This document shows positions 4,928 to 44,262 of a DNA stretch of 44,262 nt, in pieces. The notes beneath the pieces were generated by a model. It did no database searches. It was not told the origin of the DNA and saw only the letters and a list, made by a program, of their open reading frames with translations. Each line of letters begins with the position of its first letter. The first letter of the stretch is position 1. Made by a program: the position numbers and the translations under genes. This DNA comes from an uncultured archaeon (lineage in GTDB: Archaea > Asgardarchaeota > Thorarchaeia > Thorarchaeales > Thorarchaeaceae), in assembly GCA_964473825.1 (NCBI GenBank), contig CAYYQL010000019.1, positions 1-44,262 on the forward strand, given 5' to 3'.

Positions 4928-4949
4928 GTTCCATCAGATTGAGGAGTGG

Positions 4950-8216: not shown

Positions 8217-8218
8217 AG

Positions 8219-8836
8219 GTGAAGTATTTGATAATACGAATGGACAAAGAAGAAGAGAAGACCGACATAGAGCAAGTTAGAGAGGTGAGGAAGAGGGCTG
8301 CAGATGCCCTCGTTTCGTATCTCAAGACCTTCTATCCAGAAGATAGACAGAGGGACTCGAAACACGCCCTGATGGGACCTGTTGGCAAGCTCCTCACACA
8401 GATAACAACCACTGGGGAGATTAACTGGGGGGCGGTAAAGGGATATGTCTTGAATATTCACAAGAACCAGCAGGGCGGAAGGAGCGTCTCAGCAGATGCC
8501 GCAGAACGCCTAGAAGACGCCGTTGACCTGCTGGAGGACCTCAGAACGTTACTCCCACCAACGAAATGGCTCAAAACGGTAGAGGACCTTGATGACGAGG
8601 TCTTCTTCGGCGCATACAAAGAGAATCTCGTTGGACGGAGGAAAGGAATCCAGAAAAAGTTCCATGATTGGCTAAAGGCAAACTACGACTCGATTGATGA
8701 GCTCAACAAGCATCTTGAGGAAGAGGAGGAATATGCTTCCTTTGACAAGGTGCCTGATCCCTTCTCAGCCCCACCCGAGATTAAGGAAATCGTGGATCAG
8801 TTCTGGAAAGACTACAAGAAGACAAAGGAGGAATGA
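8219..8836 (+). CDS. Probable separately encoded small subunit (Cas11d-like), helical and charged; alternative start ATG 8240
   Basis: Sits between cas10d and csc2 with tight junctions and a GAGGTGA RBS. Assigned by position only. Confidence 0.55.
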   Translation: MKYLIIRMDKEEEKTDIEQVREVRKRAADALVSYLKTFYPEDRQRDSKHALMGPVGKLLTQITTTGEINWGAVKGYVLNIHKNQQGGRSVSADAAERLEDAVDLLEDLRTLLPPTKWLKTVEDLDDEVFFGAYKENLVGRRKGIQKKFHDWLKANYDSIDELNKHLEEEEEYASFDKVPDPFSAPPEIKEIVDQFWKDYKKTKEE

Positions 8837-9765
8837 ATATGGCTACAACGAAGATGCCAGAGAGTTTTGCAAAACTGGAACCCTATCTTGCGAAGGAACT
8901 CTCTCCACTTCTCGATGCAAGAGTTGTGCAGGTATTGCTCTTGAGGCAGACTCACGACTACACAATCTTACGCACGGAAGAGAGCAGAGAACTGAACACA
9001 GTTGTGGTTCCCGAGAGTATCGAATCCACGAAGCCCACGGTGAAGGTCGCTTTTCTCGCTTCCAAGCAGAAGGCGCCCGAGACGCGCATGTTCTCGCGCT
9101 TTCTAAGAACCGCGGATGACAATATAGAATGCTACCTGAAGGACGAGCTGTGCATGAAGTGCCCACGTTGTGCGTTGTTTGGTGCAGTTTCTGTGAAGAG
9201 CGGCAGAGATTACAACATCAAGCATAGAATCGAGTACTCTACTGCCTTCTCGGTGGAAAAGTATGAGGACCTGCTTGAGTCTATCACATTCAACGCAGTC
9301 GGTGAAACGAACCAGCTTACAGGGCAGGCATTGAACATCACTCACAATGTGCGCCCCTTGGCTAACTTCCCATCTGTGGTGTCCTTGAACACGGCTACTT
9401 GGCAGGAACTGGCTCTCTATCTCAAGACTCTATTGGCCACCAAGGCCTACGGCGCCGAAACTAGGACAAAGGGCGACATGAGGAACATCGTGCTCGGAAT
9501 CGTTGGAGGACTTGAGGAAGTCATCACATCGCTCGAATACTCGTTGGAACTTGCAGCTCGATGGGAGGACGATCTTCCAGATGCAACTCACGAGATCCTA
9601 GAGAAGTACGCCAGCATAAGCGCATCGCGGGCGAACCTAGTGGTCCTTACAGCGAACGAAACGAGCGAGTTAATCTCTGATGTGCAGGACATCAGCCCAG
9701 ACAAGGCCTTTGTAGAAAGCATGCAGAAGCAGGTCGATAACTTCGTTTCGCAAGCAAAAGCGTAA
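8833..9765 (+). CDS. csc2: Type I-D Cas7 (Csc2)
   Basis: LLRQTHDYTILRTE, SKQKAPE, LCMKCPRCALFG and RIEYSTAFS motifs. Confidence 0.92.
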   Translation: MNMATTKMPESFAKLEPYLAKELSPLLDARVVQVLLLRQTHDYTILRTEESRELNTVVVPESIESTKPTVKVAFLASKQKAPETRMFSRFLRTADDNIECYLKDELCMKCPRCALFGAVSVKSGRDYNIKHRIEYSTAFSVEKYEDLLESITFNAVGETNQLTGQALNITHNVRPLANFPSVVSLNTATWQELALYLKTLLATKAYGAETRTKGDMRNIVLGIVGGLEEVITSLEYSLELAARWEDDLPDATHEILEKYASISASRANLVVLTANETSELISDVQDISPDKAFVESMQKQVDNFVSQAKA

Positions 9766-9782
9766 CAGGAGATGGTGCCTCG

Positions 9783-10547
9783 GTGTCCAGTCACCTAAGT
9801 GTGAATCTCGGAATAATGACATGTCATGACTATCTCTTCTATGCTAGTCGTGACTACGGAGCGACTGCGAAACCGGCTGACTTCATTGGGAACTACGCTC
9901 TCATGTATGCTATGAACCGGCGCACCCCCGAAATACGCCGAATGATAGACGGAACAACTCCGCACTACAATGAGGACTTGAGCAGGATGCCTGTCTATGT
10001 TACGCCCGCAGCATTCGTCGACGACTTCCCTCATGAAGTATCAACGGGGCAAAGCTGGATTAAGTCATCGGTGCTTCTCGGAGCAATGCGGAAGGGGCAT
10101 TGGAATCGAGGCAACATGACCAGGCTAACTTGGAACAGCATCGGAGAGAGTCTGTTAGAGCGGATGGAGCAAGACAACATCAATCTGCCAAAGAAGGGAG
10201 CATACTATCAACATCCCCCGCTCTCGTCACTTTACTTCTACGCCGTGGGCGAATCTCTACCTACGGTGTTCAGACTCGGCAAGAAGTACTCTCCTGTCAG
10301 AGCGTCATTCTATCCCCTCGACGTGAGAGAGAAGGAGGGGCGCTTTACTCCAACTTGTCCCGTTACAGTCAGCGACCTTCCGGAGTCGACCCGCATACTT
10401 CGCGGCAGTCTTCTTACGGTTCCCCCAACACCTACCCTGATCCTCTCAGAACTGGAAGGAAAATACATCGAGGGAAAAGACCCCGAAGGGGTGGTTCATC
10501 GGTTCCCGATACCGGATACGGAAAAATACCACGAATCTTGGGATTGA
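9783..10547 (+). CDS. csc1: Type I-D Cas5 (Csc1)
   Basis: HDYLFYASR...IGNYALMYA N-terminus and RLGKK; follows csc2. Confidence 0.87.
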   Translation: MSSHLSVNLGIMTCHDYLFYASRDYGATAKPADFIGNYALMYAMNRRTPEIRRMIDGTTPHYNEDLSRMPVYVTPAAFVDDFPHEVSTGQSWIKSSVLLGAMRKGHWNRGNMTRLTWNSIGESLLERMEQDNINLPKKGAYYQHPPLSSLYFYAVGESLPTVFRLGKKYSPVRASFYPLDVREKEGRFTPTCPVTVSDLPESTRILRGSLLTVPPTPTLILSELEGKYIEGKDPEGVVHRFPIPDTEKYHESWD

Positions 10548-10548
10548 G

Positions 10549-12639
10549 GTGTCTGTTGTGAGTCAGGAGAGCCAAGTGACTGTCGGCCCGGTTTTCATAC
10601 CCCAGTCGGAGGTCCAGCTTGGCGAGTTTGAAGCGCTCTACGACCACCAAGTTGCAGCCATCGAGTCCGAGAGCAGTGTAATAGTCGTAGATGCCCCCAC
10701 CGGCGCAGGAAAGACGCTTGCTGCTCTGGCCCGTGTGCTGGAAAGAGACCTACCAACTGTCTTTGTCTATCCTACGAACGCGCTGGTCACAGACCAGGCT
10801 CGAGCAATCAGCGTCCTACTCCAGAAGCTCGGAAGAGAGGTGAATCTGATTGACCGTGAATGGGATCCCAAAACGCTTGGGGAGAGCTCCGATCGGGCTG
10901 TTGATGTGCTTCACTTAACTGGCGAGACCCTTCAGGACCTAGCTGCTGGTGGAGCGAAAGGAACAGCCCTTGAGAAGATCCTGAAAGGCATCTATCAAGG
11001 GGATAGGCTCCGACTGCTACTTACAAATCCCGATATGCTTTACCTAGCCATGAGCGGACGATATGCGCGGCATGGACGTATCATCGAGCAACTTGATACA
11101 TTCAAGACGTTCGTTGTTGATGAGTTTCATCTGTACTCAGGTCCTTCTCTTGCACGGCTTGTGTTCATGTTGAACCACCTCAGGGTGAGCGATTCGAATC
11201 CCGCGGTTGACATCGTATTCCTCAGTGCGACTCATGGCGAGACTATTGACTTGATTACCAATAGCTACATGGACGTAGATATTGTGAGGGCGGAGCCACT
11301 CACTGAGCCCAGCAGTCGCAGCCGACAAGTGCGGCACGAAACCCTCTGCAAGCTCACCACGAAGAACAGGGTGATGACTGGTACCGAGGATGCAGATCAG
11401 GTCGCGAAGAGCCTGATAGAGTTCTACTTCCAAGACTACATCTGGCCAGGAGAACCGCCCAATGTCAAAGTGTTGGGAATCTTCTCTTCCGTTACCTTTG
11501 CTGTACAAGTGACGGAGAGAGTCAAAGAGGAACTGACAGAGAGGGGACTGGATGCAGACGCCATAGTGAAGCAGCTGCACGGTCTGATTCCTCATAGTGC
11601 CCGGCCGAAAATCCAGACCCTATCCGAGTGTATACTGGTGGGCACCTCTGCAATCGAGGTGGGTGTCGATTTTGATGTTCCATTCTTGGTCATGGAGGCA
11701 CACGATTTAGCATCTTTCCTACAAAGGTTTGGCAGAGGGGGCAGACACAACAAATGCGAATCCATCCTCTACCTTCCAAACACTATGGTAGACAGACTCA
11801 GAGATGCATCATCTTGGTCATTCCCTGATCTTGTGAATCTGGCTGCGGATGCATTCAGGGAACTTCCCTCGTATGCCGCATTCATGTGTAGCTCCCAAGC
11901 GAGAGAAATGCTGCTGTCCATGGCCCTAGCCGGAAGCCAGGAGTTGGAGTTCTACCCAAAGAAGAGGATGACCTACAATGTGCAGTCGGCAGTTGAACAC
12001 TTCCGTTTCTTGGTTGATGCCAATGCGGCAGTGAGTATTGGAAACGAGTCTTTGTCAGAATCTATAGGGCCCTTGGAATCGGAGATTATCAAGATAGACT
12101 TGTACCATCCGCGGGTAAAGACCATGGCAGAGTATAGTTTTTTGCGAGGTACAATGAACTCGATTCTGGTAGCATTTCCCGGGGCGCTTGTTGGAAGCAA
12201 TCTCGCAAAAGTCTATTCAGAACTTGATGTGTTTGAAGTCTTCAGATTGAGAGGAAGGCTAGAGGAGGCAAAGGCTCACTGGGAGATGATTCCAGCTGCG
12301 TACAAGAGAAGATATGGCGAGAACGACCCAGTCTTCATCGTGGAGGAGATTGGGAAAACGGACTACCCACGGGTCTTTGTGACTTCAGATGCATATTGCA
12401 GACGGTGCACGGCGGTGTTCAATGATGATGTCACGATTCGAGTCGGCAATACTCGGATGCGGCATATCCTTCGTGATCTCCTACACAGGCGGAATCTCGT
12501 CTATTTCTGGAGAGGGATGAACCGAATGACCGATTATCGAATCCCTCGAATCTACGCAGAGGAGGAGAATGGTGCCGTCGTTATTGGCGACTGGGCCCTG
12601 GTTGCAGAATACCTTGACAAGGAGGAGGAGTCAGAATGA
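10549..12639 (+). CDS. cas3: Type I-D Cas3' helicase (no HD domain)
   Basis: APTGAGKT, YPTNAL, DEFH, SAT, GTSAIEVGVD and QRFGRGGR SF2 motifs. Confidence 0.92.
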   Translation: MSVVSQESQVTVGPVFIPQSEVQLGEFEALYDHQVAAIESESSVIVVDAPTGAGKTLAALARVLERDLPTVFVYPTNALVTDQARAISVLLQKLGREVNLIDREWDPKTLGESSDRAVDVLHLTGETLQDLAAGGAKGTALEKILKGIYQGDRLRLLLTNPDMLYLAMSGRYARHGRIIEQLDTFKTFVVDEFHLYSGPSLARLVFMLNHLRVSDSNPAVDIVFLSATHGETIDLITNSYMDVDIVRAEPLTEPSSRSRQVRHETLCKLTTKNRVMTGTEDADQVAKSLIEFYFQDYIWPGEPPNVKVLGIFSSVTFAVQVTERVKEELTERGLDADAIVKQLHGLIPHSARPKIQTLSECILVGTSAIEVGVDFDVPFLVMEAHDLASFLQRFGRGGRHNKCESILYLPNTMVDRLRDASSWSFPDLVNLAADAFRELPSYAAFMCSSQAREMLLSMALAGSQELEFYPKKRMTYNVQSAVEHFRFLVDANAAVSIGNESLSESIGPLESEIIKIDLYHPRVKTMAEYSFLRGTMNSILVAFPGALVGSNLAKVYSELDVFEVFRLRGRLEEAKAHWEMIPAAYKRRYGENDPVFIVEEIGKTDYPRVFVTSDAYCRRCTAVFNDDVTIRVGNTRMRHILRDLLHRRNLVYFWRGMNRMTDYRIPRIYAEEENGAVVIGDWALVAEYLDKEEESE

Positions 12640-13445
12640 TAACACTAGACTTTCACGTGATGAGTCCATTCTCAGGAACACTGAACTACACTGGTAGCCC
12701 TCTGCGAGCTGCCTTTCTCAACTTGGTGAGAGATTGCGATTATGAACTGAGCAACAATATTCATGAGACGGGGGCCATTCGCCAGTATTCGTTGCACCCG
12801 TTTCCGTTTAACCGCCAGTTCAACACGAATTTCAACGAGGGAGAGGAGTACAGATTCAAAGTCAATCTTCTTGATGCTGACAAGTTCAAAGACGCCATAC
12901 GAAATATCGCCTTGGGCATCAATTCGGACATACGACTCCATCATCACGCATTCCCAATCAGGCGGATTGACTTCGATCATAATGATGCGAATCAGCTCAT
13001 GACTGGATGGACCGAACCTGTGAAGGAGTTGGATGTCAAATCGATCCGAATAGGCATGTATTTTGAAACCCCTACTCAGCTCTCAGTGTATGGAAGCGAC
13101 TATGCATGTGTACTTCCGCAGCCTGCGCGCGTCTTCACAGCATTGCTTCGGGTCTGGGAGTCTATCGAGAAGAGCTCGACAGTCGAATATACCTCGGAGT
13201 ACCGCGACTGGGTGGAGCAGAACGTTCATATCAGTCGCCACCGTATTCATACTGCACATGTCCCGATAGGAAGGCGGCGACAAGTTGTAGGATTTGTGGG
13301 CGATGTGGACTACATCATAGACACAGCGGATTCGCAGCTGGTGGCTCTTACGGTAGGGCTGGCAAGATTCGCTGAATTGAGCAACATAGGAAAAAATCGC
13401 ACTGCCGGATTTGGCAAGGTGTCAGTCGATGTGACTGGGGGTTGA
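12636..13445 (+). CDS. cas6: CRISPR RNA-processing endoribonuclease Cas6
   Basis: C-terminal Gly-rich loop IGKNRTAGFGKV, plus FETPT and GFVG. Confidence 0.92.
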   Translation: MITLDFHVMSPFSGTLNYTGSPLRAAFLNLVRDCDYELSNNIHETGAIRQYSLHPFPFNRQFNTNFNEGEEYRFKVNLLDADKFKDAIRNIALGINSDIRLHHHAFPIRRIDFDHNDANQLMTGWTEPVKELDVKSIRIGMYFETPTQLSVYGSDYACVLPQPARVFTALLRVWESIEKSSTVEYTSEYRDWVEQNVHISRHRIHTAHVPIGRRRQVVGFVGDVDYIIDTADSQLVALTVGLARFAELSNIGKNRTAGFGKVSVDVTGG

Positions 13446-13477
13446 AGGATAAGGCAAAGGCATGATGGAGTTGGAGG

Positions 13478-14428
13478 GTGGAAATGTATCTCATTCCTGA
13501 GAATGTGAAGAGGAGGCTGTTGAGACGGTATCGAAAGAGGTCTCGCGAAGTAGTTGTGGATGAGAGGTTCAGAGGGTGGTCATGGGAGTATCCGCCTCTC
13601 GACCCGCCGTACGACATCCATCTCTCCCTCAGCGAGCTTGCCGGCAGATACTGTGAATCGATGCGCGATATCTATCTGAAGCATGTTGAGGGAATAAAGA
13701 AGCCCACAACAGCCAAGATGATCATGGGAGGACTCTATCACGAGATTGTGGCCCTTGTCTTCGAGAATGCAAAACGCGGCCTCTACAGCCTAGGTCAGGT
13801 GACAGGTACAGAACTCGGCAACCATCTCACAGAGATTCGTGATGACGTCATCGAGGACATGATGAACAAGACCAGAAAGCCGGACGTCACTGACCGCGGC
13901 GGGGGGTGGAACCCTGAGACCATCAGCACGAACCTCGCATGGCTCTGGGACTACGCAGTCAGCCAGATTATAGCATCCGTTGATCGCGTTCGAGCTGACC
14001 AACCGTATATCGGTCTTGATGCTCTCGTAAGCACTGCCTTGCCCATCGTTGTGGAACAAAAGCTCGACGGAAGAAATCTTGGATTGAGTGGCTACCTCAG
14101 CGCTGATGCCTACGGTTCTGAGGGTGTGGTCATGGACATCAAGACGGGGCGAAAGTGGCGATTTCACAGGCTTGCCACAACTGGATATGCCCTGGTGATT
14201 GAGAGTATTCACGAATATCCGGTTGACGTTGGTTGTATCATCTATTGCTGGTTAGAAGGAGCCCCCAAGCCCACAGTCAAGTACGAGGTGCACAGCATTG
14301 ATGAGCCATTACGACAAGAATTCATCGAGAACAGGGATGATGCCATGAAGATAGTATATGACGAACGTGATCCAGGGTTACCGACAAAGTGCTATGAGGA
14401 TTGTCCGTACTGGCACCACTGTCACTGA
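13478..14428 (+). CDS. csa1: Cas4-family protein Csa1/Cas4a
   Basis: RGWSWEYPPLDPP...LSELAGRYCESMRDIYL, DIKTG, GYALVIES and terminal CYEDCPYWHHC. Confidence 0.87.
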   Translation: MEMYLIPENVKRRLLRRYRKRSREVVVDERFRGWSWEYPPLDPPYDIHLSLSELAGRYCESMRDIYLKHVEGIKKPTTAKMIMGGLYHEIVALVFENAKRGLYSLGQVTGTELGNHLTEIRDDVIEDMMNKTRKPDVTDRGGGWNPETISTNLAWLWDYAVSQIIASVDRVRADQPYIGLDALVSTALPIVVEQKLDGRNLGLSGYLSADAYGSEGVVMDIKTGRKWRFHRLATTGYALVIESIHEYPVDVGCIIYCWLEGAPKPTVKYEVHSIDEPLRQEFIENRDDAMKIVYDERDPGLPTKCYEDCPYWHHCH

Positions 14429-14560
14429 AAAAGAAACCAGCTCCGAGGGAGTGCGATGACACCAGACCGCTCGGAGCCTTCCATTGAACTAGGGTGGGGC
14501 ACTCAGGCCCCTTAGACCCACGACCAACCGTGTCTTACCACGGCCAGTCAGGATCCTCAG
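14429..14560 (-). ncRNA. Candidate small structured RNA, convergent with csa1
   Basis: Consecutive hairpins that pair better on the minus strand through G-U pairs (GACTGGCCGTG/CACGGTTGGTC, GCTCCGAG/CTCGGAGC), ending in a T-rich tract. Confidence 0.4.
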
Positions 14561-14663
14561 GATCAAAGACAACTACATACATAGTAATCGATGATACTGG
14601 ACCCAGTCATAGTGAAGGCCTAGAACGCTTCAAGTTGCGACAGCAGACGAAAGCTGTTACACA

Positions 14664-14680
14664 AGAGGAAACTTTCCTCT
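14664..14680. promoter_or_regulatory. Perfect palindrome AGAGGAAA-C-TTTCCTCT upstream of csa3; candidate operator
   Basis: 8-bp inverted repeat with a 1-nt centre, ~50 nt before the csa3 start. Confidence 0.4.
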
Positions 14681-14729
14681 CCAACGGAAAGTCTTATCGG
14701 AGAGCAATGCATCGAACCTGCAGTCAAAA

Positions 14730-15383
14730 ATGAAACTCCACGTGGCTACTCTAGGACTCCACGCGAATCAACGCGTGATTCGTTCAATCATGGAAAGAGG
14801 TGCACAGAAAGTAGTGCTCTTGTTCACCGACAAGAATGAGTCAGAGTTACCACGGTTGTTATCTCTTTTTGAGCAGTCAGGAATACCTGTTGAGAAGATC
14901 AAGACCAAACCTTGGAATTACGACGCGGTTCTCAAGGATATCCTTGAGGTTGTATCGCACCATCCCAATGCAGAGATCGAATTCAACGGATCCTGCGGAA
15001 CAAGAATCATGACGGCAGCCGTATACATGGCCGCCATACTAACACAGTCCCCTGTGTTGATTGTTGCTGAGGACGAAGCGGGAGAGCCCAAGGGAGATCT
15101 CCTCACAATCTCTCCGGGCCAGACCATGAAACTCACACCTCCCAAGATGCGAATCATAGAGAAGCTACTAGACGAAGGCGGCTCAGTTGAAACCCAGAGT
15201 GACCTAGGCTCAAGGCGTAGCCTGAAATCGGGGTCCATCACGAAACATCTGCAAGAACTTGAGAGAGCAGGGTACATCCGTCGGAAGAAGTCAGGCCGGG
15301 CGAAACGTGTGACCCTGACAGACCTCGGACGCGCTATGTTCGATGCCAAGAAGGTCAGAAGACAGAGAATCTGGAGGGGGTAG
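14730..15383 (+). CDS. csa3: Csa3-like CARF-wHTH transcriptional regulator
   Basis: N-terminal Rossmann-like VATLG...NGSCGTRIM; C-terminal wHTH SITKHLQELERAGYI...RVTLTDLG. Confidence 0.8.
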   Translation: MKLHVATLGLHANQRVIRSIMERGAQKVVLLFTDKNESELPRLLSLFEQSGIPVEKIKTKPWNYDAVLKDILEVVSHHPNAEIEFNGSCGTRIMTAAVYMAAILTQSPVLIVAEDEAGEPKGDLLTISPGQTMKLTPPKMRIIEKLLDEGGSVETQSDLGSRRSLKSGSITKHLQELERAGYIRRKKSGRAKRVTLTDLGRAMFDAKKVRRQRIWRG

Positions 15384-17010
15384 GTGTCTGACCTCCAGTT
15401 CTGAGGATTGGATTGAAGGAGAGGGGGTCGATAGACTCTGGAAAAGGCATGCTCAAAACATCTATTCGCAGTTTGGACTGCAGGCATCCCCAAAGCCTGA
15501 GACTGTAAGACTGGTTCGCGAAACCCAACACCTGCCGCCCCATGGGTACTCAAGAGAGGGACCCTCACTCGTACTGTCACAGGAAATCTCCAACGCTGAT
15601 GTACCTCTAGAGGGAATCGTGGCTAGTGAAGCCCTTCGGAGTGCCATCGATGAACTTGCAATCTGTTCCGAGGCCAAGACTGACATTTCCATGGAATATG
15701 CGCGTCAGGCCCTCTCCGGTACTGACGAAGAAAAGTGGCGTGAATGGTGGGCTGAGACCTACCCCAAGCAGAGAGTGTCGCCTAATCTACTACATCATCC
15801 TGCGAGGGTTTTCACTCGGCTCTATAGCATTGCAGGAATAGAAGGCATCCATTCCCTTCTCAGGATGGTAAGAGCCGTATCAAGGACTCAGGACGAACTC
15901 GACCTGGTGGACTACGTTCGGTTACTGCACGTCAGAATCCGCGAGATGAGCTCGACCCTCAATGAGACTGAGCTTCTCATCGCAGCAGAGCTGACTCGCA
16001 GTCACAATGTGACTCTCAAGGAGGTGGCGGAGAAGACAGATTTCAGTCCGCAGTGGGTCTCAAAGAACGTGCGGGAGATGAAGAAGAGAGGTGTCTTACG
16101 AGAGTTCCAACACATCAGATTCTCCAAAGTTGGAATCCGGATGTTCAATGTACTCCTCGCTTCGTCACGAGAAGAGGTCGATCCTCTGGAGCTCGTAGAG
16201 AACTGCCCATTCTTGTATGGATATCGCAGGATTCTGACCGGACGTTGGACTCTCCATGCAGTCTTGACCGTGCCCGACTCGGTGCATAACATCAAGGCCA
16301 TCGAACAGCTTCCCGCTTATGGGAAGAAATGGGGTGTCTTGGTAGACATATCTGAGGTCAGTAGTTCCTGCACAAGATTCGCATTCGAACACTATGACTG
16401 TCAGTCGCAAGCATGGAGGATTCCTTGGCAATCAATTCGAGAAGCCGCAGCTCTGCTACTGAATGGTCATCTCGACATGGATCCAGTGGAGCTCGAATAC
16501 GCCGAACAGAGAATCAAGTATCAGTTGGACAGGCTCGATATCAAGATCATGGATGCCATAAGACGGCGTCTACCGAACATTGCTGCAATACGTCGGGACG
16601 TTCAAGCGAGTCAGAACAAAGTGGCGAGCAAAGTTCAGAAACTGCGCGACCTTGGTGTTATCGTGACCCGTAGGGAGGTACACAACATAGGCTTGAATGA
16701 GGGAGTTGTTATCAAGACACAGGGAGAGAGTCTTGTCCCCGAGTTGCTCTCATGGGTGAACTATCTCCCGAGGTCGATCACCTCCCTAGATACTGCTGGC
16801 AATCTGTTTGTCTCGTCGTACCTTCCCCTTGGTGGCGCCTATGGGGCCATCAGGGCAGCCAGAGAATTCGGCCCAGATGTGTCAGTTAACGTTGTAGGAG
16901 ACTATGTGTATGGAGGCTGGGGATTCCCAGCGGAACTCTGGGACAAAGACAGGCAGCTGTGGACTGCGCCACGCGAGAGAATCATGGATTGGATCGAATT
17001 GCTGAGGTAA
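15343..17010 (+). CDS. ~550-aa protein with tandem wHTH + Lrp/AsnC-like domains (paralog A); true start probably near 15388
   Basis: HTH segments LKEVAEKTDFSPQWVSKNVREM and IAAIRRDVQASQNKVASKVQKLRDLGVI; colinear with 19403-21031. Confidence 0.75.
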   Translation: MPRRSEDRESGGGRCLTSSSEDWIEGEGVDRLWKRHAQNIYSQFGLQASPKPETVRLVRETQHLPPHGYSREGPSLVLSQEISNADVPLEGIVASEALRSAIDELAICSEAKTDISMEYARQALSGTDEEKWREWWAETYPKQRVSPNLLHHPARVFTRLYSIAGIEGIHSLLRMVRAVSRTQDELDLVDYVRLLHVRIREMSSTLNETELLIAAELTRSHNVTLKEVAEKTDFSPQWVSKNVREMKKRGVLREFQHIRFSKVGIRMFNVLLASSREEVDPLELVENCPFLYGYRRILTGRWTLHAVLTVPDSVHNIKAIEQLPAYGKKWGVLVDISEVSSSCTRFAFEHYDCQSQAWRIPWQSIREAAALLLNGHLDMDPVELEYAEQRIKYQLDRLDIKIMDAIRRRLPNIAAIRRDVQASQNKVASKVQKLRDLGVIVTRREVHNIGLNEGVVIKTQGESLVPELLSWVNYLPRSITSLDTAGNLFVSSYLPLGGAYGAIRAAREFGPDVSVNVVGDYVYGGWGFPAELWDKDRQLWTAPRERIMDWIELLR

Positions 17011-36262: not shown

Positions 36263-36415
36263 ATGACAGATGAAATAGACGAAGGCCTGCTGAACCTCCT
36301 GGAAATGGTGGTTCGCTGCTACGACTGCTGACTATCCTGCGGCGCTCATTTCGTCGTTGTGGACGATGAGGGTCGCGAGATAGTCCGGAAGGAGTTAGTG
36401 ACTGGCGGCGGATGA
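36263..36415 (+). CDS. vhuU: Selenoprotein VhuU (50 aa, in-frame UGA=Sec at 36329-36331): MTDEIDEGLLNLLEMVVRCYDCULSCGAHFVVVDDEGREIVRKELVTGGG
   Basis: Manual translation. The EMVVRxYDxUxSCxxH motif is the L2 motif missing from VhuA, and a SECIS follows. Not in the ORF track. Confidence 0.92.
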
Positions 36416-36450
36416 AGGCCCGGCGTAAAGATGTGAGCCGGGTTGGACAC
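36408..36450 (+). promoter_or_regulatory. Eukaryote-like (Asgard-type) SECIS element
   Basis: AUGAA-GGCCCGGC-(GUAAAGAUGUGA loop with AAA)-GCCGGGUU-GGAC: AUGA/GA quartet, stem and apical adenines. Confidence 0.8.
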
Positions 36451-36626
36451 GCCCCGCAAGGGCGCGTCGGTCGCACTCCTTGGATATTTCTTTAACTACT
36501 AAAAAACCATGAGATGTACGTAAAATTGGAAGTAGGACTATTGTCGGTTACCGAAAAGCGATGTAGCTATCGAGGTCCTAGAATTGAGAGAAGGAACCGA
36601 TTTGCTCACTGGTTTGTTCTAGACAT

Positions 36627-39600
36627 TTATTTTTCAAAAGGTTGAAGATTCCGTCCGGGTACAGTATAACCGGAAAGAATAGCCCAAATTTTTCTTAGAT
36701 CCGGTGGATCTAAGGCGAGATTACTTAGGGCCTCGTCCTGCCAAGCACCATGCTCTAGTGAAGAAAGCCACTCCCGAGCTTTTCGAATAGACGGCATGCT
36801 ACCATCTAGAAATTCCCTAAATGCATCCGCCATGAGTTTGGCTGCAGCACGAGGAACGCCTGCATTGCACAGAACCATGCCTTCAAGCGTATCGATTCCA
36901 AAATAAGCCATCGCCGGTAGGCTGAGAATCTCATACTTCTTCCTCAAATCGAGGCCTTCAAACCCCTTGTTCGTTCTCATGCTTTCTATCAACGCACCAA
37001 GTCCCCAGCTGCCAAACACGCGAATGGAATGAATGAGATCCACTGCTGCGTCTATGCGTTCAATTACATTGTTCATATCGAATATCGTAGGCACGGCAAT
37101 CTGGGAAACGGGAACTCCCTTTACCCAGAGAGCAATTGCTTTCTTCAATTGGTCACTGCTGATATCCTCAAGTTTCGATTCAATCTCGGGTATCTGTTTT
37201 AGCATTGCTGCGAACTGCGAAAGGAAGGGTCCACCCGGCTGCAACAAAGATTCTACATTCACATATTCACCTAGCTCAATCTTTTCGCTACTTGAAGAAA
37301 TCATCTGGACGGATTGAGGCGAAAAGCCAGTCCTATCAACTCTTTCCAGCAAATCATCGGAGTATGACAAAAGACTTTCAGAGAATTCCCTACACCCATC
37401 CAACAATTTCTGCGCCTCATTCGGATTTGACTTCAGTAGATTCTGATATCCTAAAGTCGCTTGAACTAGGGTGTCGATATGATTCTTAATATCCTCTTTG
37501 CCCTCCATCTGGCGATATGCGTGAGTAAGATACTGTATGAAGCTTGACCACGCCGAGTCAACTTTGAAGGCGTGTTCAAGATTCACTCTGCCAGCCTTGA
37601 GAACCGTGTCAATTACAATTTGCTGTAATCCTGTGACTAGATTGTCTACACTCCGATTCACAAACGAATTCAAGTCTTTGTCATCGTCTTTATTCGTAAA
37701 CACAATCAAGCCGACCAGGTCCTGATGAGCTCGCCCCACTCGACCTGCAATGTTCCAGAACAGGTCCGAACTCATGGGCTTGGGGGGTTGACCAATGAGA
37801 TAATCATTCAGAATAAGAGAGGATATGGGGAAATTGACCCCATAGGCTATTGTAGGGGTTGCAACTAAGACCCTCAGTCTGTTCCGTCGCATTAGCCATT
37901 CAACGAGGAAACGAACCTCCTCTGAAACTTTGCCGTGATGGTAGGCGATTCCCTTCCTTAGCAATGAAACCAAATCATATTCAGATCCATATTCCATTTC
38001 AAGAAACCTGCAGACTAATTCAATATCAGGGTGATCAGTATCAGCGCAAAGGTCGGAGAGGAAATTAGCTATCTTGCGTGCGTATGTCGTCTTTTGACTA
38101 TACACGACGAGATTGCCACGGGCTGACAAGAAATGCCCAAAGATAGCTGCAACCTGGTATTTCGCAAGTTGAGATTTCGTGAGTTTCATGCCCGGGTTGG
38201 AGCAGCAATCAATCTCGCCTTGAAATGCCAGAGTTTCATGTGATGTATAGAGTGGTTCTAGCCGAAACTGCCAGTCTTTTCCCCATCCAACAGGTTTAGC
38301 AAAACCAATAAATTGCTTGTTCGGGCGCCATTCAAGCCGTATGTCAGTACCTTCTGTGCCCCCAAGCCACTCTGCGAGGTTTCGGGAATTCGGTATAGAG
38401 GGAGCAAGAAGCAGAAAGCGTGCCTCTTCACAATCTAGCTTCAGTGTGGTAAGAAGCATTTCTGACTTAAGAGGGCGTTCGTTATTGTTGCGACTGCCTC
38501 GGAGAGAGTCAGCCTCATCGAAGACAACAAGTCTGAGTTTCCTGCTTGTTTCTCCAACCCTGCCGCTACGTAGAAGAAGATCTAGCTTCTCTGGCGTTGT
38601 CACCAAGATATCAAATCCCCCCTCTTCTACTAGGGCCTCCTCCGTGGGATCAATCTCCGAAACAGGAACAGCCTTCTCAACTCTGTAACCCAAGGGCTCC
38701 AAGTCTACCCTTAGGTCAACTGCGACTTGGTTCACCAGAGTTCTCGTAGGAACAATATAGGCAACCCAAGACTCCGAAGTATTCTCAAGAGTATAGACAA
38801 TCTTAAACTCGGCGAGTAGAGTCTTGCCTGCGCTAGTTGGCATAGTCACGACTATAGCCGGAGTTGCGTGCTTCAGAAGGTCATATTGATATATTGCATC
38901 ACGTTGTGCCGGCCAGAGCTCGAGTATTGGACCCCCTTTATCCGGGCTCGCCAGATGTCTAATCATATCTGATAGCGTAGTTTCAGTTTCAGCTAGAAGA
39001 GTCCATATGCTTGATTCGATTAGTTTGGCTGCTGCTTGCCGAATCCAGATAGATATCGTAGTTAGCCTCGCAAGTCCAGAGTCTTCAGCCAGCTTTAGAG
39101 CTCTACCAAAATGATGCTGAAGTCCATCTTCTGTTGGAATCCTTTCTCCGGATATTAGAAACTTACCAAGAATCTCCACTGCTCGGGCTAGATGATATAA
39201 TGCAAGAAGTTCTGTGGCTGCAGGAAAGCCTTTGTTCCGACCCTTGAGATATTCACCCTCTTTCTCTAACTGCCATTCTCTCAGCTTCTGAATTGACTCG
39301 ACAGCATTCTTTAGTTCATCCCAATTCCCCTTTCTGACTAGAAGTAAAAACGTTCTCATGATGCCCCTGTAGACAGTCTCCGGCCAGCTTGAATCCTGGG
39401 ATGATAGGGAAGGTACCAGAGTTTCCAGCCACTTACTAACATCGATAGATCGCTCACCAAGAACGCCAAGACAGGATGCTTTTACCAAATGGGTCAGCAA
39501 GTCTGTCATATTGTCAGGAACTGGTACGGTGCAATAGAAACTAAACGCCCTAGCAGAGAGATCGTGTATGTCCTCCGTATCTCCTTCCACGCATTTCGCG

Positions 39601-39698
39601 AATACCTGCATCTCAAGAAGGCCAGCTGTTTGAAGCATCTGGTCAATCTCTGATGCCTGGACAGAACACTCATTCTCAGGAATTGCGGCTCCCAGCAT
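36627..39698 (-). CDS. Ski2-like SF2 DEAD/DEAH helicase, Hachiman HamB-like (frame is open up to 39776)
   Basis: MPTSAGKT, TPEKLD, FDEAD, AYHHG, ATPTIAYGVNFP and NIAGRVGR motifs; long helical N-terminus; follows a nuclease gene. Confidence 0.8.
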   Translation of the reverse strand: MLGAAIPENECSVQASEIDQMLQTAGLLEMQVFAKCVEGDTEDIHDLSARAFSFYCTVPVPDNMTDLLTHLVKASCLGVLGERSIDVSKWLETLVPSLSSQDSSWPETVYRGIMRTFLLLVRKGNWDELKNAVESIQKLREWQLEKEGEYLKGRNKGFPAATELLALYHLARAVEILGKFLISGERIPTEDGLQHHFGRALKLAEDSGLARLTTISIWIRQAAAKLIESSIWTLLAETETTLSDMIRHLASPDKGGPILELWPAQRDAIYQYDLLKHATPAIVVTMPTSAGKTLLAEFKIVYTLENTSESWVAYIVPTRTLVNQVAVDLRVDLEPLGYRVEKAVPVSEIDPTEEALVEEGGFDILVTTPEKLDLLLRSGRVGETSRKLRLVVFDEADSLRGSRNNNERPLKSEMLLTTLKLDCEEARFLLLAPSIPNSRNLAEWLGGTEGTDIRLEWRPNKQFIGFAKPVGWGKDWQFRLEPLYTSHETLAFQGEIDCCSNPGMKLTKSQLAKYQVAAIFGHFLSARGNLVVYSQKTTYARKIANFLSDLCADTDHPDIELVCRFLEMEYGSEYDLVSLLRKGIAYHHGKVSEEVRFLVEWLMRRNRLRVLVATPTIAYGVNFPISSLILNDYLIGQPPKPMSSDLFWNIAGRVGRAHQDLVGLIVFTNKDDDKDLNSFVNRSVDNLVTGLQQIVIDTVLKAGRVNLEHAFKVDSAWSSFIQYLTHAYRQMEGKEDIKNHIDTLVQATLGYQNLLKSNPNEAQKLLDGCREFSESLLSYSDDLLERVDRTGFSPQSVQMISSSSEKIELGEYVNVESLLQPGGPFLSQFAAMLKQIPEIESKLEDISSDQLKKAIALWVKGVPVSQIAVPTIFDMNNVIERIDAAVDLIHSIRVFGSWGLGALIESMRTNKGFEGLDLRKKYEILSLPAMAYFGIDTLEGMVLCNAGVPRAAAKLMADAFREFLDGSMPSIRKAREWLSSLEHGAWQDEALSNLALDPPDLRKIWAILSGYTVPGRNLQPFEK

Positions 39699-39765
39699 GA
39701 GCTTGGCAGAGGTTTCTTTTGCGTCAGAGAGCTGATCTGAAGTCCATAATTGGTATTCTTCATTA

Positions 39766-40539
39766 TCAGGCGACAGTCATATCAATCCTCCCTCTTAGTT
39801 CAAGAAGGCAATTTTCGAATGGCAGTTGAATGTAAAGTGCAATCAGAACAACCTTAGGTGATGATGAGTTAGAGTATCGTTGTAGCACAACATCTAGGTC
39901 CCTTCTGTCTGGTTGTGTGTCCTTCACAAGCAAGCCATGTATCTTATATCTGCCATCTTTGTGTTGTTTCAGTGCCTCCATAAATCGATCGATCTTACCG
40001 AGTTTGCTGCACCTTATATAGAGCCAATGAATTGCGTACGTGGCTCTCTTGCCCTGCAGAGACACGAGTTGGCTTATTAGTCCGTCTTTGCCATAGAGAC
40101 ATCGTGGTGGGGCTCCATCACTTGTCGTCTTTACTTCGCCAAATGCAAAGAAGGTCGAGCCGTCTTCCTCAGAAAAACCAATGATATCTGCTCCTGCGCC
40201 ACTCTCTCGCGCGTTCTTCTCATCCCAGAAAACTGACCAAGGAAGTTCAACTCGAGAGGTTTGCTGAAGGTAGCATGTTGCAAGAAGTTGGCCAAGCTTC
40301 GGCTTGTCAAGATACCTTGTCTGCCGGATATCTTCCTGGAGGTAATCAAGACTGAATTGGGTTGAGGTTGCCTGCTGTAAGTCTTCTTCTGACAGTTGAA
40401 CCAAATGCCTCCTCAGGCACGGAATAAAATCCCCGCAGAGATACGTAAGGAAATCATCACCACTTAGAGCCTTCATCCCGAGCATTTCCACAGAACCAAT
40501 TGATTCACTGTATTCCTGTACCCACAAACGGATCACCAA
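39766..40539 (-). CDS. PD-(D/E)XK nuclease-like protein, Hachiman HamA-like
   Basis: GADIIGF...FGEVKT motif; directly upstream of the helicase. Confidence 0.65.
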   Translation of the reverse strand: MVIRLWVQEYSESIGSVEMLGMKALSGDDFLTYLCGDFIPCLRRHLVQLSEEDLQQATSTQFSLDYLQEDIRQTRYLDKPKLGQLLATCYLQQTSRVELPWSVFWDEKNARESGAGADIIGFSEEDGSTFFAFGEVKTTSDGAPPRCLYGKDGLISQLVSLQGKRATYAIHWLYIRCSKLGKIDRFMEALKQHKDGRYKIHGLLVKDTQPDRRDLDVVLQRYSNSSSPKVVLIALYIQLPFENCLLELRGRIDMTVA

Positions 40540-41095
40540 GCATGTTGACGCATCGCCTCAGAGGCAGGAGTATCTTCGGAATATGCTTTGGAGCACCGCT
40601 CGAATTCCCCATTCAAATTTTGGCAGTTGGACAAAGACACCGTTCGCTGAGTGCTTTCAGCCACTATTTGTCCCAATATCAAACGCCTCCAATTGCTAGC
40701 TTGATGTATCTGATATAAGTATTCTCTGCAGAATGGCTCTGTAAAATAATTCTCATATTGTTCACGAAATGAATTCTGTGAGCAACGAAATGGGTCTCTT
40801 CTGATAGTTTTGAGTTGCTCCATACAAGTTTTCCTTCATCTAAGCCATGTGAACTCGATTTATTTTACAGGGCCCTGCAGAATGACACTCTACGTTCATG
40901 GATCTAGACACTACCCAATGAAAGCAGATGGTCGTCCTTCCTAGCGCACCCTATTCTTGCCTCTAAGTATTACGTCTGTCAAAATGATTGGTTAGGCCCG
41001 TATTATCTAATTCAATAGAGAGTGGTTAAAGTGAATCGACCAGGAATATGAGATGAAAACACCACGTCAGAGATTCGGGCCGGACAGGTCCTGCA

Positions 41096-41123
41096 CCGCA
41101 AGGGCGCGCTGGTCGCACTCCTT
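41096..41123 (+). repeat. Partial copy of the post-SECIS hairpin region (36454-36481)
   Basis: CCGCAAGGGCGCG(CT/TC)GGTCGCACTCCTT, 26/28 identical. Confidence 0.8.
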
Positions 41124-41436
41124 CTATTACCACTCCTCGTCCAAGGTACAAAAGCAAAGTGAAACAATGGCTGTTCGCGGCAGCCTTGGGTTTCCCAAAG
41201 CTTCGAGAAAAATGGAGGCTCAACATAGTGTTTGGGCGAGCGATCCCCCGTGTTTCACCATATTGCTGGATGAAGTGTGAACGTCAATCCGATTCTTCAT
41301 TTGAGAGATAAAACGCACACCCTTCATTGGATTTCTGAATTCAAGGGATTTCGTATTATCTGCGAAAAATATGCAGGCTGCACTGAGGAAAAAGACCGAC
41401 CAGACATATCTTTCAGAGGGTTCTCGACAGGCTCTG

Positions 41437-43191
41437 CTATTCCCAATGCTGCTTGATGTACCTCAGTGTTTCTTCTAAATCGTAGTGCACAGTACTTCCC
41501 CCAGCTCGAACGTATAGGACTTGTCTTCCGTCCTTCTTCATGAAGACAGGATTTGGCGAACGTCGAACATCAACTCGGCAAATCTCCACTCCATTAGAAA
41601 CCGGGAAACTTACCATGTAGTATTTTCTGAAGGCCCCTCCAACTTCTCTATTGAATATGTTGGTCAGATGAATCTCAAACCTGTCCGAGTCCTTTCTGCT
41701 GCTGAAGGATGCGTAGTCGTCCTCCAGTCCGAGGACTTCGCCTTCATCATCTACCCCGATGAGAAGGGTTCCTCCCTCAGAATTCATGAAGCCGCAAATT
41801 GTCTTCAGAACTGGCTTCCACAATTCCTTGTTTGGTTTCCCTTCTTCATAGCTATATATCAATGAAGACTTGAATTCTAGAAAGCGGGATTCTTTAGATT
41901 GTATTAGCTCCTCTACACTCAGATTCCGGAGTTTCTCTGGCGCGAAGGCATGTGGACTCTTTCTATACCAAAACCAAAACCCCCCAAGAAACACAAGCCC
42001 TCCAACCCACATTGAGGATCGAATAGTGACCAGTTGAATCATAGATGTTGGTGAGTACGACTTGGGCACTTGAATGATATATCCGTCGGCCGTTCCAATG
42101 TAGAGATAATCCCGTCCGGTATTCTCGGGAACGAGAATCGACCGAGGGTCTGCAGGATACCGGTTGAGTTTCATTTGCTCTCTAGTAATCTTTGCAACGA
42201 CGGTTTGGTCATCTCTATCCAAATCAAAATACGCTAGACCTCCATAAGTGCCAACATATAGTAGTTTCTCATCTTTGTCAAATCCAAATGCATTGACTCT
42301 TCGTGATTCGAGACCGTCATCTTCTGTCAATCTAGATCTGACTAGATTCGCGTGTGTACCATTCTCTTGGAATATGAATAAGCCATTATCGGTTCCAACG
42401 TAGATCTTGTGATGGTACTGATAGTATTCAATGCAGTTCACGGATATCCAGTCCCCAAACTCATCCTTCTCTGAATAGGTGAAGTTCTTTCCGGTCCTCA
42501 AATCGATGAAAGAGAATCCCCGATCCGTACCTGCTAATAGAATATCCCCCCGAATCTGCATACTCCTAACATAGTTGGAGGGAAGCCCATGTGACGTGTT
42601 GATGAACCTAATCTCTCGCGAAGCCATGAGGCATTCAACGATTCCAAAGCCCGGACTACCAAAGAAGACCCTAGAATTGGCACCATCATCATAGTATTCG
42701 ACTTCTTCGAATCTCATGTCCTCGGTCATATTGCGGATGAAGAAGGATTGGAATTCATAGGTTGAAGAGGGATATGTGTGTGTGTAATGATATACTGAAC
42801 CGTTCTCTCTTCCGGTTGTGTAGAAATGACTGAATCCTGATAGATATGGTTCTATATCATATGCGTGGGTAGTCCATGTACTATTGTCCATTTTGATTGG
42901 TCCAGTAATATTTCGGTTTCCTCTATCATAGAAGTATAATCCGTCCAGCCCCTGGAAAATAATCTCGAACTCATTTGGGTCAGCAAAAGCCATAGGTCTG
43001 ACAGTATAACCACCATAGGGGCCGACATGTGTCCAGATTAAATCCTCATAGTTTGGCTGAAGATAGTGTACGTCTAATGTTGCCACAGTGGGAAGTACAA
43101 GGAATGTCACTATCAGCATTTGCAAGAACCGCCTGTTTGTCCATCTTAGGCTTCGCTGTTCAATCTCAGGCTTCGTCTCCCTGATAGTCAT
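41437..43191 (-). CDS. Membrane-anchored protein: signal/TM, beta-propeller ectodomain, TM, cytoplasmic Schlafen/AlbA_2 domain
   Basis: GLPSNYV/GLESRRV and LYVGTYGGL propeller repeats; TM MWVGGLVFLGGFWFWY-RK; ES..LEFKSS, CGFMNSEGGTLLIGVDD.G...G and YVRAGGST motifs. Confidence 0.85.
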   Translation of the reverse strand: MTIRETKPEIEQRSLRWTNRRFLQMLIVTFLVLPTVATLDVHYLQPNYEDLIWTHVGPYGGYTVRPMAFADPNEFEIIFQGLDGLYFYDRGNRNITGPIKMDNSTWTTHAYDIEPYLSGFSHFYTTGRENGSVYHYTHTYPSSTYEFQSFFIRNMTEDMRFEEVEYYDDGANSRVFFGSPGFGIVECLMASREIRFINTSHGLPSNYVRSMQIRGDILLAGTDRGFSFIDLRTGKNFTYSEKDEFGDWISVNCIEYYQYHHKIYVGTDNGLFIFQENGTHANLVRSRLTEDDGLESRRVNAFGFDKDEKLLYVGTYGGLAYFDLDRDDQTVVAKITREQMKLNRYPADPRSILVPENTGRDYLYIGTADGYIIQVPKSYSPTSMIQLVTIRSSMWVGGLVFLGGFWFWYRKSPHAFAPEKLRNLSVEELIQSKESRFLEFKSSLIYSYEEGKPNKELWKPVLKTICGFMNSEGGTLLIGVDDEGEVLGLEDDYASFSSRKDSDRFEIHLTNIFNREVGGAFRKYYMVSFPVSNGVEICRVDVRRSPNPVFMKKDGRQVLYVRAGGSTVHYDLEETLRYIKQHWE

Positions 43192-43194
43192 ATG

Positions 43195-44157
43195 TCAAAG
43201 AGCCTCCAGTATTCGCAAGATGCTGTAGAGTGAATTATGTATCGTATGTATGGCCCAAGGATGAGTGATTTTGTTAGATGATACCCAAACTGCTCCGAAT
43301 GTTAGGCCAAATCCGAGTCTGGTCAGGAGCGCACTCAGCATTGAACTGACCGGATCGAAGAGAACTCGTGAATATTGCGCATCAGAAACAAAGTGAAGAA
43401 ACGCAAATATCGTTGAAGAAACAAGTAGGCCCATCACCCTGCTTCCGAAATACTGCGAGAGTCTCGGTTGAGCTATGGCTCGAAAGACCAATTCTTCAAC
43501 GAAACCCGTTATTATCCCGAGGGATATAATTAGGGATATCATACGCGTGAAGATCTCGGGTGTTATGAGTAACGGCAAAGCTCTAGAGAGTGGTATTAGA
43601 CGAAACAAGAAAACGATGACCAAGGCCATCAAGACGACCTTTGTGAGATTGTCTTCATCTCCATCACCTTGCCCAAAAAAAAGAGGTTTCAAAGATTGGC
43701 CCCAACCCCGAGTCAAAATCAGTACAATCGGAATAGAACCGATAAGAAGCAAAATGCCTGAAAAGAGAACGCCGAAACCCTCTAGGAGCGGCAGAACGAC
43801 CCATGCAGCAGTTAGATAGAGCAAAATGATGAGAGTTGCTTCTTCGAGCGGATTGATGTAGAGCTTGATTGTATTTGACAACTCGTGACTATAGGCACTT
43901 ATCAGCAAATAGGCAAGAACTAATGAAGTTAGACCAAGAACCAAGATAGAGATGTCTGAATAGGTGATTGCAGCTGCGACTGCTAGCGATGAAACGAAAA
44001 CCACAAACACCTGCAGGATTGCCTTGTCGCGTTCAAAAATAGGTAATGTGTGTCTTTCCTCCGGCCCCTGCCTTTCAGGGATATTTGCGTCATCTACTTG
44101 CACAGTACTACACGCCCCAATATGCGATTCTCTGATTCTTGATATGTAGGTATCCAA
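43195..44157 (-). CDS. CPBP (CAAX/Abi) family intramembrane metalloprotease
   Basis: Multiple TM segments; EELVFR, FAFLH and HTIHN motifs. Confidence 0.9.
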   Translation of the reverse strand: MDTYISRIRESHIGACSTVQVDDANIPERQGPEERHTLPIFERDKAILQVFVVFVSSLAVAAAITYSDISILVLGLTSLVLAYLLISAYSHELSNTIKLYINPLEEATLIILLYLTAAWVVLPLLEGFGVLFSGILLLIGSIPIVLILTRGWGQSLKPLFFGQGDGDEDNLTKVVLMALVIVFLFRLIPLSRALPLLITPEIFTRMISLIISLGIITGFVEELVFRAIAQPRLSQYFGSRVMGLLVSSTIFAFLHFVSDAQYSRVLFDPVSSMLSALLTRLGFGLTFGAVWVSSNKITHPWAIHTIHNSLYSILRILEAL

Positions 44158-44204
44158 ATTTAAGGTTTCGAATTCCTATATCCTCTTTCCCACTCGGCAC
44201 ATTG

Positions 44205-44262
44205 TGTGGCGCTCATTTCGTCGTGGTTGACGATGAGGGTCGCGAGATAGTCCGGAAGGAGT
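44205..44262 (+). repeat. Duplicated 3' part of vhuU (att-like direct repeat)
   Basis: Matches 36338-36395 with 3 synonymous differences; the sequence upstream is not homologous to vhuU. Confidence 0.9.

Follow-up and report, generated by a model that had tools for sequence, protein, structure and literature searches.

What might explain why an archaeal Schlafen-type nuclease domain is anchored in the membrane behind an extracellular β-propeller, and why is the gene that encodes it accompanied by a gene for an intramembrane protease? The two genes make up the last 3 kb of the window, by which we mean the whole 44,262-nt stretch analyzed here (contig CAYYQL010000019.1 of an uncultured member of the Thorarchaeaceae, assembly GCA_964473825.1), and they lie on its minus strand, the gene for a CPBP/Rce1-like protease first and the gene for a receptor-like Schlafen protein second. 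We lean towards viewing the pair as a self-contained, mobile and membrane-embedded conflict module of Asgard archaea, most likely antiviral, which would combine a conserved chassis with a swappable effector and would work through surface sensing and release by the CPBP protein. Taken by itself, the part of this view that makes the pair a defense module with a Schlafen nuclease as its effector is probable.

Anatomy of the receptor and its partner protease

The original prediction, made from the letters of the window alone, described an operon-like layout of two genes with a 3-nt gap, and both open reading frames (ORFs) and the CAT spacer between them are indeed there. A GGAGG sequence is found 11 nt upstream of the ATG of the Schlafen gene, and an identical 3-nt gap separates the CPBP and receptor genes in locus L001. 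The receptor starts with an N-terminal anchor, continues with a seven-bladed β-propeller and another membrane helix, and ends in a Schlafen/AlbA_2 domain. Because homologs at 25-50% identity retain this architecture, both genes can be regarded as genuine rather than as chance ORFs.

The AlphaFold2 model of the receptor, built on an alignment of six homologs, has a mean predicted local distance difference test (pLDDT) score of 78.7, and it places 27 β-strands within residues 52-376 and the beginning of a compact α/β domain at residue 426. Compared with seven-bladed propeller structures, the propeller gives Z scores of ~26 with a root-mean-square deviation of ~3 Å over ~285 residues, and among the best Foldseek matches is the periplasmic domain of the glycan-sensing protein BT4663 (PDB 4a2l), which has the highest identities of the list, 17-18%. 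The Pfam Reg_prop repeat is detected in the receptor below threshold, at 13.6 bits against a cut-off of 20.4, yet a profile made from ten ectodomains matches 45,118 proteins, including Reg_prop-rich proteins at 1e-88 and long proteins with several propellers, of which one has a Reg_prop match of 1e-37. The model strands, the structural matches and the ectodomain profile all support the propeller of ~350 residues that had been proposed from the sequence, and modeling indicates that it is real although its Pfam score is low. No Y_Y_Y, histidine kinase, receiver or helix-turn-helix (HTH) domain is recognized by Pfam in the receptor, and with these domains absent, an identity as a hybrid two-component system is ruled out.

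Two hydrophobic helices are common to all of the relatives compared, with the exception of L026 (P0136), which lacks the first. This first transmembrane helix (TM1) may stay in place as a signal anchor or be cleaved off as a signal peptide, and the domains lie on the same sides of the membrane either way. Lysine and arginine residues of the window receptor number six in the N-terminus, none just after TM1 and four after the second transmembrane helix (TM2). Across 11 family members, NxS/T sequons occur in the propeller at a density of 1.78 per 100 residues (66 in 3718) versus 0.47 in the C-terminal domain (9 in 1913), a nearly fourfold difference; the window propeller has seven sequons where shuffling would give 2.4, and five sequon positions are conserved in the receptor family. 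Such an enrichment is the pattern that would be expected of an N-glycosylated archaeal surface domain. Charge distribution and sequon enrichment are independent of each other and agree in supporting a propeller outside the cell and a Schlafen domain inside it, the opposite-sided topology that had been predicted.

In the cytoplasmic part of the receptor, the SLFN_AlbA_2 domain (PF04326) is recognized at residues 434-569 with 67.1 bits against a gathering cut-off of 25.3. Both Schlafen motifs of the original prediction are present: the Ex4ExK motif reads ESRFLEFK (residues 434-441, with E434, E439 and K441) and is invariant in the 11 family members, and the GVDD motif occupies residues 479-482, with D481 and D482 present in the window protein and the aspartate kept in most of the 11. 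In the alignment, ESRFLEFK lies over ESQSIEFK of SLFN11 and LLIGVDDEG over LFIGVDDKS, matching the catalytic Glu, Glu and Asp of SLFN11 and SLFN13. The domain folded alone, from 42 sequences, reaches a pLDDT of 96.5, and in a Foldseek search of the PDB with this model, ranks 1-36 are all AlbA_2, SAMD9 or SLFN structures, after which the scores collapse. From its motifs, the effector is predicted to be a single-lobe prokaryotic Schlafen nuclease that has an intact Ex4ExK plus Asp active site and cleaves tRNA or other RNA.

The nearest AlbA_2 relatives of the domain are fusions with DUF262/GmrSD, BrxL-type, restriction-enzyme and REC partners, and bPH_2-AlbA_2 proteins are among the closest matches. 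Membrane helices stand directly before the domain in 33 of 81 metagenomic proteins of the same AlbA_2 subclade (L057-L136), and these 33 are mostly 265-aa two-helix proteins without ectodomain or CPBP. Such small two-helix and bPH_2-AlbA_2 proteins, which are uncharacterized, are tethered by N-terminal helices as is the receptor but, unlike the window pair, they have neither a large ectodomain nor a CPBP neighbor. They look like a widespread Schlafen class that is absent from the literature examined on prokaryotic Schlafens (pSlfns), and membrane tethering of AlbA_2 is by itself not unique to this receptor.

The product of the first gene is assigned to the Rce1-like family PF02517 with 55.9 bits against a gathering cut-off of 22.4, and it has at least six hydrophobic segments. 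Its EExxxR, FxxxH and HxxxN motifs, likewise noted in the original prediction, are invariant across seven partner CPBPs that share just 27-39% mutual identity, which argues for selection on catalysis. With all of the catalytic residues conserved, the partner is predicted to be a glutamic-type intramembrane protease. Neither a CAAX box nor a prenylated substrate can be seen for the receptor/CPBP pair. Prediction of a complex of the two proteins gave a score of 0.28 against a mark of 0.32 and is neutral on binding.

Linkage, effector exchange and mobility

A CPBP gene adjoins the receptor gene on the same strand in ten loci: the window, L001, L005 (genome G349), L006 (G323), L007 (G322), L025, the P0130 contig, L008 (G387), L137 and L138. 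The CPBP gene comes first in nine of the ten, and the order is reversed in L008. Adjacency is conserved with L026 as the single exception and, since topology, catalytic residues and linkage all hold, a transmembrane sensor-nuclease under protease control, as originally envisaged, is a good reading of the anatomy. Not only do the two genes lie side by side, they also occur in the same genomes: when 86 genomes from the same family were scanned, the partner CPBP subclade turned up in exactly the five that hold the receptor, and it is sharply set apart (E ≤ 1e-69 in those five, next best 1e-18). The five carriers belong to five different genera, a patchy distribution. Generic CPBP paralogs have no propeller neighbor. 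Chance adjacency of CPBP and receptor can be rejected because co-occurrence across the genomes is this strict. Pairwise identities of CPBPs and propellers co-vary with r = 0.57, a value reached by 11 of 5000 permutations; the sequences are related to one another, so that this figure is descriptive only. Sequence, fold and comparative genomics together establish the chassis as a receptor with a dedicated CPBP protein, and across the loci compared the pairing appears to be obligate and its context mobile and defense-associated.

Genomes of the same family also encode short propeller proteins of ~390-430 aa with two membrane helices and no cytoplasmic domain (L016 3889-5172, L017 3264-4442 and L018 1037-2206), and these have no CPBP neighbor. 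Full-length relatives of the receptor are very rare, each 90% cluster that was looked up having one member. A single metagenome scan seeded on the Schlafen-domain pattern returned AlbA_2-domain relatives only and no further full-length receptors, and no relatives were found among IMG/VR viral contigs, a result that speaks neither for nor against a defense role. So far, the pair is known only from a few genomes and metagenome contigs of Asgard archaea. A TBP gene adjoins the pair in L001, which fits an archaeal host.

Three of the loci, L008 (P0122), L137 (P0133) and L138, have the same chassis and a non-Schlafen C-terminal domain of ~180 aa. The alternative domains of P0122 and P0133 match the C-terminal half of the PADLOC candidate PDC-S05 (4e-8 and 0.006, respectively) and, by BLASTP, have in common just an HxRxLIxE-type motif. 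The C-terminal domain of L138 resembles that of P0133 by eye in translation only, and the L138 receptor gene is split between propeller and alternative domain by a frameshift or a sequencing error. The alternative domain has no sequence match in the PDB; matches in the ESM Atlas are phospholipase D (PLD)-like, with feature scores of 0.90-0.91 and a TM-score of 0.76 to a PLD phosphodiesterase cluster, and a PLD-like nature is to be taken as a lead only. In a maximum-likelihood tree of the propellers, the Schlafen-type L007 groups with two PDC-S05-type receptors (supports 96/90 and 91/98), and the third PDC-S05-type receptor groups with the Schlafen clade that includes the window protein (support 92/96). 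These branches are well supported, and at least two changes of effector type must therefore have taken place. Conflict systems characteristically keep a sensor core and shuffle the effectors attached to it.

The pair also has the marks of a mobile element. Direct repeats bracket a 7.9-kb island, and a degenerate third copy splits a pair of Hachiman-like genes from the CPBP-Schlafen pair, an arrangement that suggests serial insertion at one site. Because the repeats both bracket the island and separate the two gene pairs, the CPBP-Schlafen pair looks like an independently acquired cassette, extending from 41124 to 44204.

Table 1. Positions of the receptor, its partner protease, the flanking repeats and the sister receptors; positions are those of the window unless another locus is named.
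Feature	Position	Strand	Details
CPBP/Rce1-like polytopic membrane protease gene	43195-44157	-	320 aa, TTG start (ORF list, Pfam)
CPBP motif 1, EELVFR	43480-43497	-	aa 221-226; E221, E222 and R226 invariant (7 partner CPBPs)
CPBP motif 2, FAFLH	43393-43407	-	aa 251-255; F251 and H255 invariant (7 partner CPBPs)
CPBP motif 3, HTIHN	43234-43248	-	aa 304-308; H304 and N308 invariant (7 partner CPBPs)
Gene junction	43192-43207	-	GGAGG 43203-43207; CPBP stop TGA 43195-43197; 3-nt spacer CAT 43192-43194 (read from sequence)
Receptor-like Schlafen gene	41437-43191	-	584 aa, ATG start (ORF list, homologs at 25-50% identity)
Cytoplasmic N-terminus (aa 1-22, 6 K/R) and TM1 or signal anchor (aa 23-44)	43060-43191	-	Hydropathy, charge counts; model helix aa 20-48
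Extracellular seven-bladed β-propeller, Reg_prop class (aa 49-379)	42055-43047	-	Model, structure matches, profile, sequons
TM2 (aa ~385-409), aromatic belt FWFWY at end, then RK	41965-42039	-	Hydropathy; model helix aa 381-411
Cytoplasmic juxtamembrane linker (aa 410-433), candidate protease target	41893-41964	-	pLDDT <50 at aa 412-416
Cytoplasmic Schlafen/AlbA_2 domain (aa 434-584)	41440-41892	-	Ex4ExK at 41869-41892; GVDD at 41746-41757
Direct-repeat copy, CPBP side	44205-44262	+	95% identical to 36338-36395 over 58 nt; runs off window end
Degenerate direct-repeat copy, Schlafen side	41071-41123	+	77% identical to 36429-36481
Sister receptor with alternative domain, L008	973-2796		
Sister receptor with alternative domain, L137	770-2452		
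Sister receptor with alternative domain, L138	3001-4789		

Competing readings of the pair

How might such a pair work? The propeller would pick up a change on the outside of the cell (an attaching virus, a surface glycan that is damaged or foreign, or a perturbed envelope, for instance), and the signal would alter the way in which the membrane helices of the receptor are presented to the CPBP protein. TM2 would sit in the lateral gate of the protease, the place taken by the prenyl group in Rce1; the juxtamembrane linker that follows TM2 (residues 410-433), which is poorly ordered, would be cut, and the freed nuclease domain would oligomerize and cut tRNA, so that translation and virus production would stop. 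The catalytic cavity of the archaeal CPBP protein MmRce1 (PDB 4CAD) faces the cytosol and has a lateral opening to the membrane (PMC5874806), and by analogy a cut just after a membrane helix would suit the window protein. Rce1 and MmRce1 belong to the same Pfam family as the window CPBP and have the same Glu/His/His/Asn catalytic motifs; Rce1, however, is a Type II CAAX prenyl protease, whereas the linker as a substrate of the window CPBP is hypothetical. Release by cleavage is favored because it best accounts for two unrelated effectors being served by a single protease subclade with invariant catalytic residues, and we put forward activation specifically by this route as a tentative proposal. 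It is reminiscent of the regulated proteolysis of a membrane-tethered factor in which PrsW and then RasP cut the anti-sigma factor RsiW. There, as in the proposal, an envelope signal leads a membrane protease from the wider CPBP/PrsW clan to cut an anchored protein and so to free a cytoplasmic activity. The cargo, however, is a regulator of a sigma factor, whereas the window pair would release a nuclease from a receptor with a large propeller ectodomain. An Asgard immunity resembling pattern-recognition receptors, in which the propeller would detect a virus or a foreign surface molecule at or before entry and the intramembrane protease would free a swappable nuclease, Schlafen or PDC-S05-like, is conceivable and rather doubtful.

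Several observations weigh against a defense module that works by release. No PADLOC model matches either protein of the pair, and in L001 no recognizable defense gene is found near it. L006 (P0121) has the GVDD aspartate one position away, and P0148 lacks it. Simple hydropathy does not settle the orientation of the CPBP active site, and the characterized CPBP partners of two-helix sensors (Abx1, SpdC and CflP) regulate and do not cleave. The exception to the pairing is L026 (2043-3698), a propeller-TM-AlbA_2 protein that has neither a CPBP gene nor the N-terminal helix; a CPBP remnant was searched for at this locus and not found, and L026 may be a decayed or remodeled copy. Next to the L026 receptor gene are encoded a secreted protein of 451 aa that contains a poly-Gly stretch and a PNP_UDP_1-domain protein of 455 aa.

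Could the propeller instead serve envelope or nutrient signaling outside immunity? It would then sense a glycan or the state of the surface, and AlbA_2 would either regulate by binding nucleic acid or act as an RNase under stress; proteolysis might release it from its membrane tether in the manner of PrsW-RsiW. The best-matching sensor class is the glycan-sensing periplasmic propeller of BT4663 and the ectodomain matches are rich in Reg_prop, both of which fit such a role, as does the absence of known defense genes around L001; moreover, ~30% of pSlfn genes lack defense neighbors and may have non-immune roles (PMC13056530). However, the catalytic Ex4ExK does not vary, the receptor lacks an HTH or kinase output, and the patchy distribution, the repeat-bounded cassette and the defense neighbors in several loci are not what this explanation would lead one to expect. 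The exchange of the output for a PDC-S05-like defense-candidate domain is typical of effector shuffling in conflict systems and not of regulators, and we consider non-immune signaling unlikely. Slightly less likely still is a CPBP protein that acts as a noncleaving membrane chaperone or regulator bound to the receptor helices, with ligand-induced oligomerization alone activating the receptor. In Abx1-CovS (PMC3578759), SpdC-WalK (PMC5854430) and CflP-CovS (PMC13692083), CPBP/Abi-domain proteins bind and control two-helix sensor kinases, so that a polytopic CPBP-family protein is likewise coupled to a two-helix sensor with an extracytoplasmic loop, and regulation without cleavage is, by this analogy, possible. 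Activation of pSlfns through a change of oligomeric state is also documented (PMC13056530, PMC13462974). The Abx1, SpdC and CflP systems, however, are bacterial and act on histidine kinases, whereas the window pair has a nuclease output and forms one cassette, and its catalytic motifs are invariant despite the divergence of the partner CPBPs, whereas CflP is described as noncatalytic (PMC13692083). That the same partner serves two unrelated effectors is also explained more easily by release than by an allostery specific to each effector.

A further explanation has the membrane Schlafen as a toxin and the CPBP protein as an immunity protein that keeps it degraded or inactive, in a cassette that would stabilize itself or serve cell competition. 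The spacing of the genes allows translational coupling, the CPBP gene usually comes first, the cassette looks mobile, and proteins of the Abi/CPBP family are known to give self-immunity to bacteriocins. In a simple toxin-antitoxin pair, however, a conserved, sequon-rich, 330-aa extracellular propeller has no role, and the reversed gene order in L008 does not suit one either; an addiction pair is improbable. The toxin-immunity and defense readings are not exclusive, as many defense systems are built as toxin-antitoxin pairs.

Known systems and neighboring genes

The pSlfns are phage-activated tRNases that are defined by Ex4(E/D)xK and driven by fused sensors, in 55 architectures (PMC13056530). 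The EcoSlfn7 (DUF262-Slfn, in E. coli) and RorSlfn5 (Ig-like-Slfn) fusions protect, and RorSlfn5 is activated through its Ig-like sensor by a phage tail-assembly chaperone (PMC13056530). In the CRISPR-associated Cash system of Csx15 and Slfn (CbCash), filament formation driven by cyclic tetra-adenylate (cA4) opens the Schlafen active site (PMC13462974). In pSlfns, as in the window protein, a sensor is joined to one single-lobe AlbA_2/Slfn nuclease domain that bears Ex4(E/D)xK, and the genes have defense neighbors; DUF262-Slfn fusions are the closest sequence relatives of the window Schlafen domain. The published sensors, however, are cytoplasmic (Ig-like, or the cA4-binding Csx15), whereas that of the window is an extracellular propeller connected across two helices, with an obligatory CPBP gene beside it. 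The words membrane, transmembrane, CPBP and propeller are absent from the main text of PMC13056530; transmembrane Schlafens, propeller sensors and CPBP partners go unmentioned in that main text, in PMC13462974 and in a Schlafen-Argonaute preprint, and a wider text search found none. The original prediction spoke of a new system, and this holds in part: the effector belongs to a class that is already known, as prokaryotic Schlafens were shown in 2026 to be phage-defense tRNases (PMC13056530, PMC13462974), and what is new here is the extracellular sensor wiring and the partner protease.

Hybrid two-component sensors of the Reg_prop type, of which BT4663 is one, have the same repeat class of extracytoplasmic propeller as the receptor. 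They contain two propellers followed by Y_Y_Y, kinase, receiver and HTH domains, whereas the window protein has one propeller, none of those domains and a nuclease output. The comparison with IRE1, also drawn in the original prediction, is apt for the layout and fails for the domains. IRE1 is a eukaryotic sensor-RNase of endoplasmic reticulum stress that has a kinase and KEN module and no partner protease. In both layouts a membrane helix connects a sensor on the far side of the membrane to a cytosolic RNase, for which oligomerization is the probable switch. The domains are not homologous, and the only Pfam domain recognized on the cytoplasmic side of the receptor is AlbA_2, with no kinase or KEN (Ribonuc_2-5A) domain.

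To our knowledge, nearly all known prokaryotic immune sensors respond to cytoplasmic cues. Prokaryotic Schlafen sensors are among those that act on such cues (PMC13056530, PMC13462974), and if the rather doubtful view of an immunity resembling pattern-recognition receptors is correct, the pair would be the first prokaryotic Schlafen system to sense outside the cell, in the archaeal lineage closest to eukaryotes, and regulated intramembrane proteolysis would have a place in antiviral immunity. A defense effector wired to a large extracellular sensor would mean that archaea can couple cell-surface events to a translation-arresting nuclease, which is the logic of eukaryotic receptor immunity, with a nuclease family that humans also use against viruses. 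Through the dedicated, catalytically intact CPBP partner, a large family of prokaryotic intramembrane proteases, mostly without assigned function, would gain a concrete substrate that can be tested. One chassis with two unrelated effectors could be viewed as a natural system for learning how membrane signaling is coupled to effector activation.

Directly downstream of the CPBP-Schlafen pair, on the minus strand at 36627-40539, are two genes that form a candidate defense system. One encodes a 257-aa protein that matches PADLOC PDC-M23A at 1e-40 and HamA weakly, and the other a 1023-aa DEAD-box helicase that matches PDC-M23B at 3e-255 and HamB at 5e-64; by these matches, the two are a Hachiman-like PDC-M23A/B pair. 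We considered the CPBP-Schlafen pair as a part of Hachiman and rejected this, since a repeat copy stands between the two and the PDC-M23 pair is lacking in the other loci. In G323 (L023 4380-5987 and 9269-10630), an ATPase-TOPRIM gene of the OLD/GajA-like type (GajA 9e-32) flanks the receptor and CPBP genes on one side, and a gene with ATPase_2 and DUF234 domains (PDC-S27 6e-43) flanks them on the other. The defense island of the original prediction is accordingly smaller than proposed: the adjacent Hachiman-like pair belongs to it, but the type I-D-like CRISPR-Cas locus at 2896-17010 is separated by ~17 kb of metabolic genes and lies outside. This locus contains Cas1, Cas4, an HD-domain large subunit, Csc2, a Cas3-type helicase, Cas6, Csa1, a Csa3-like regulator and a winged HTH protein.

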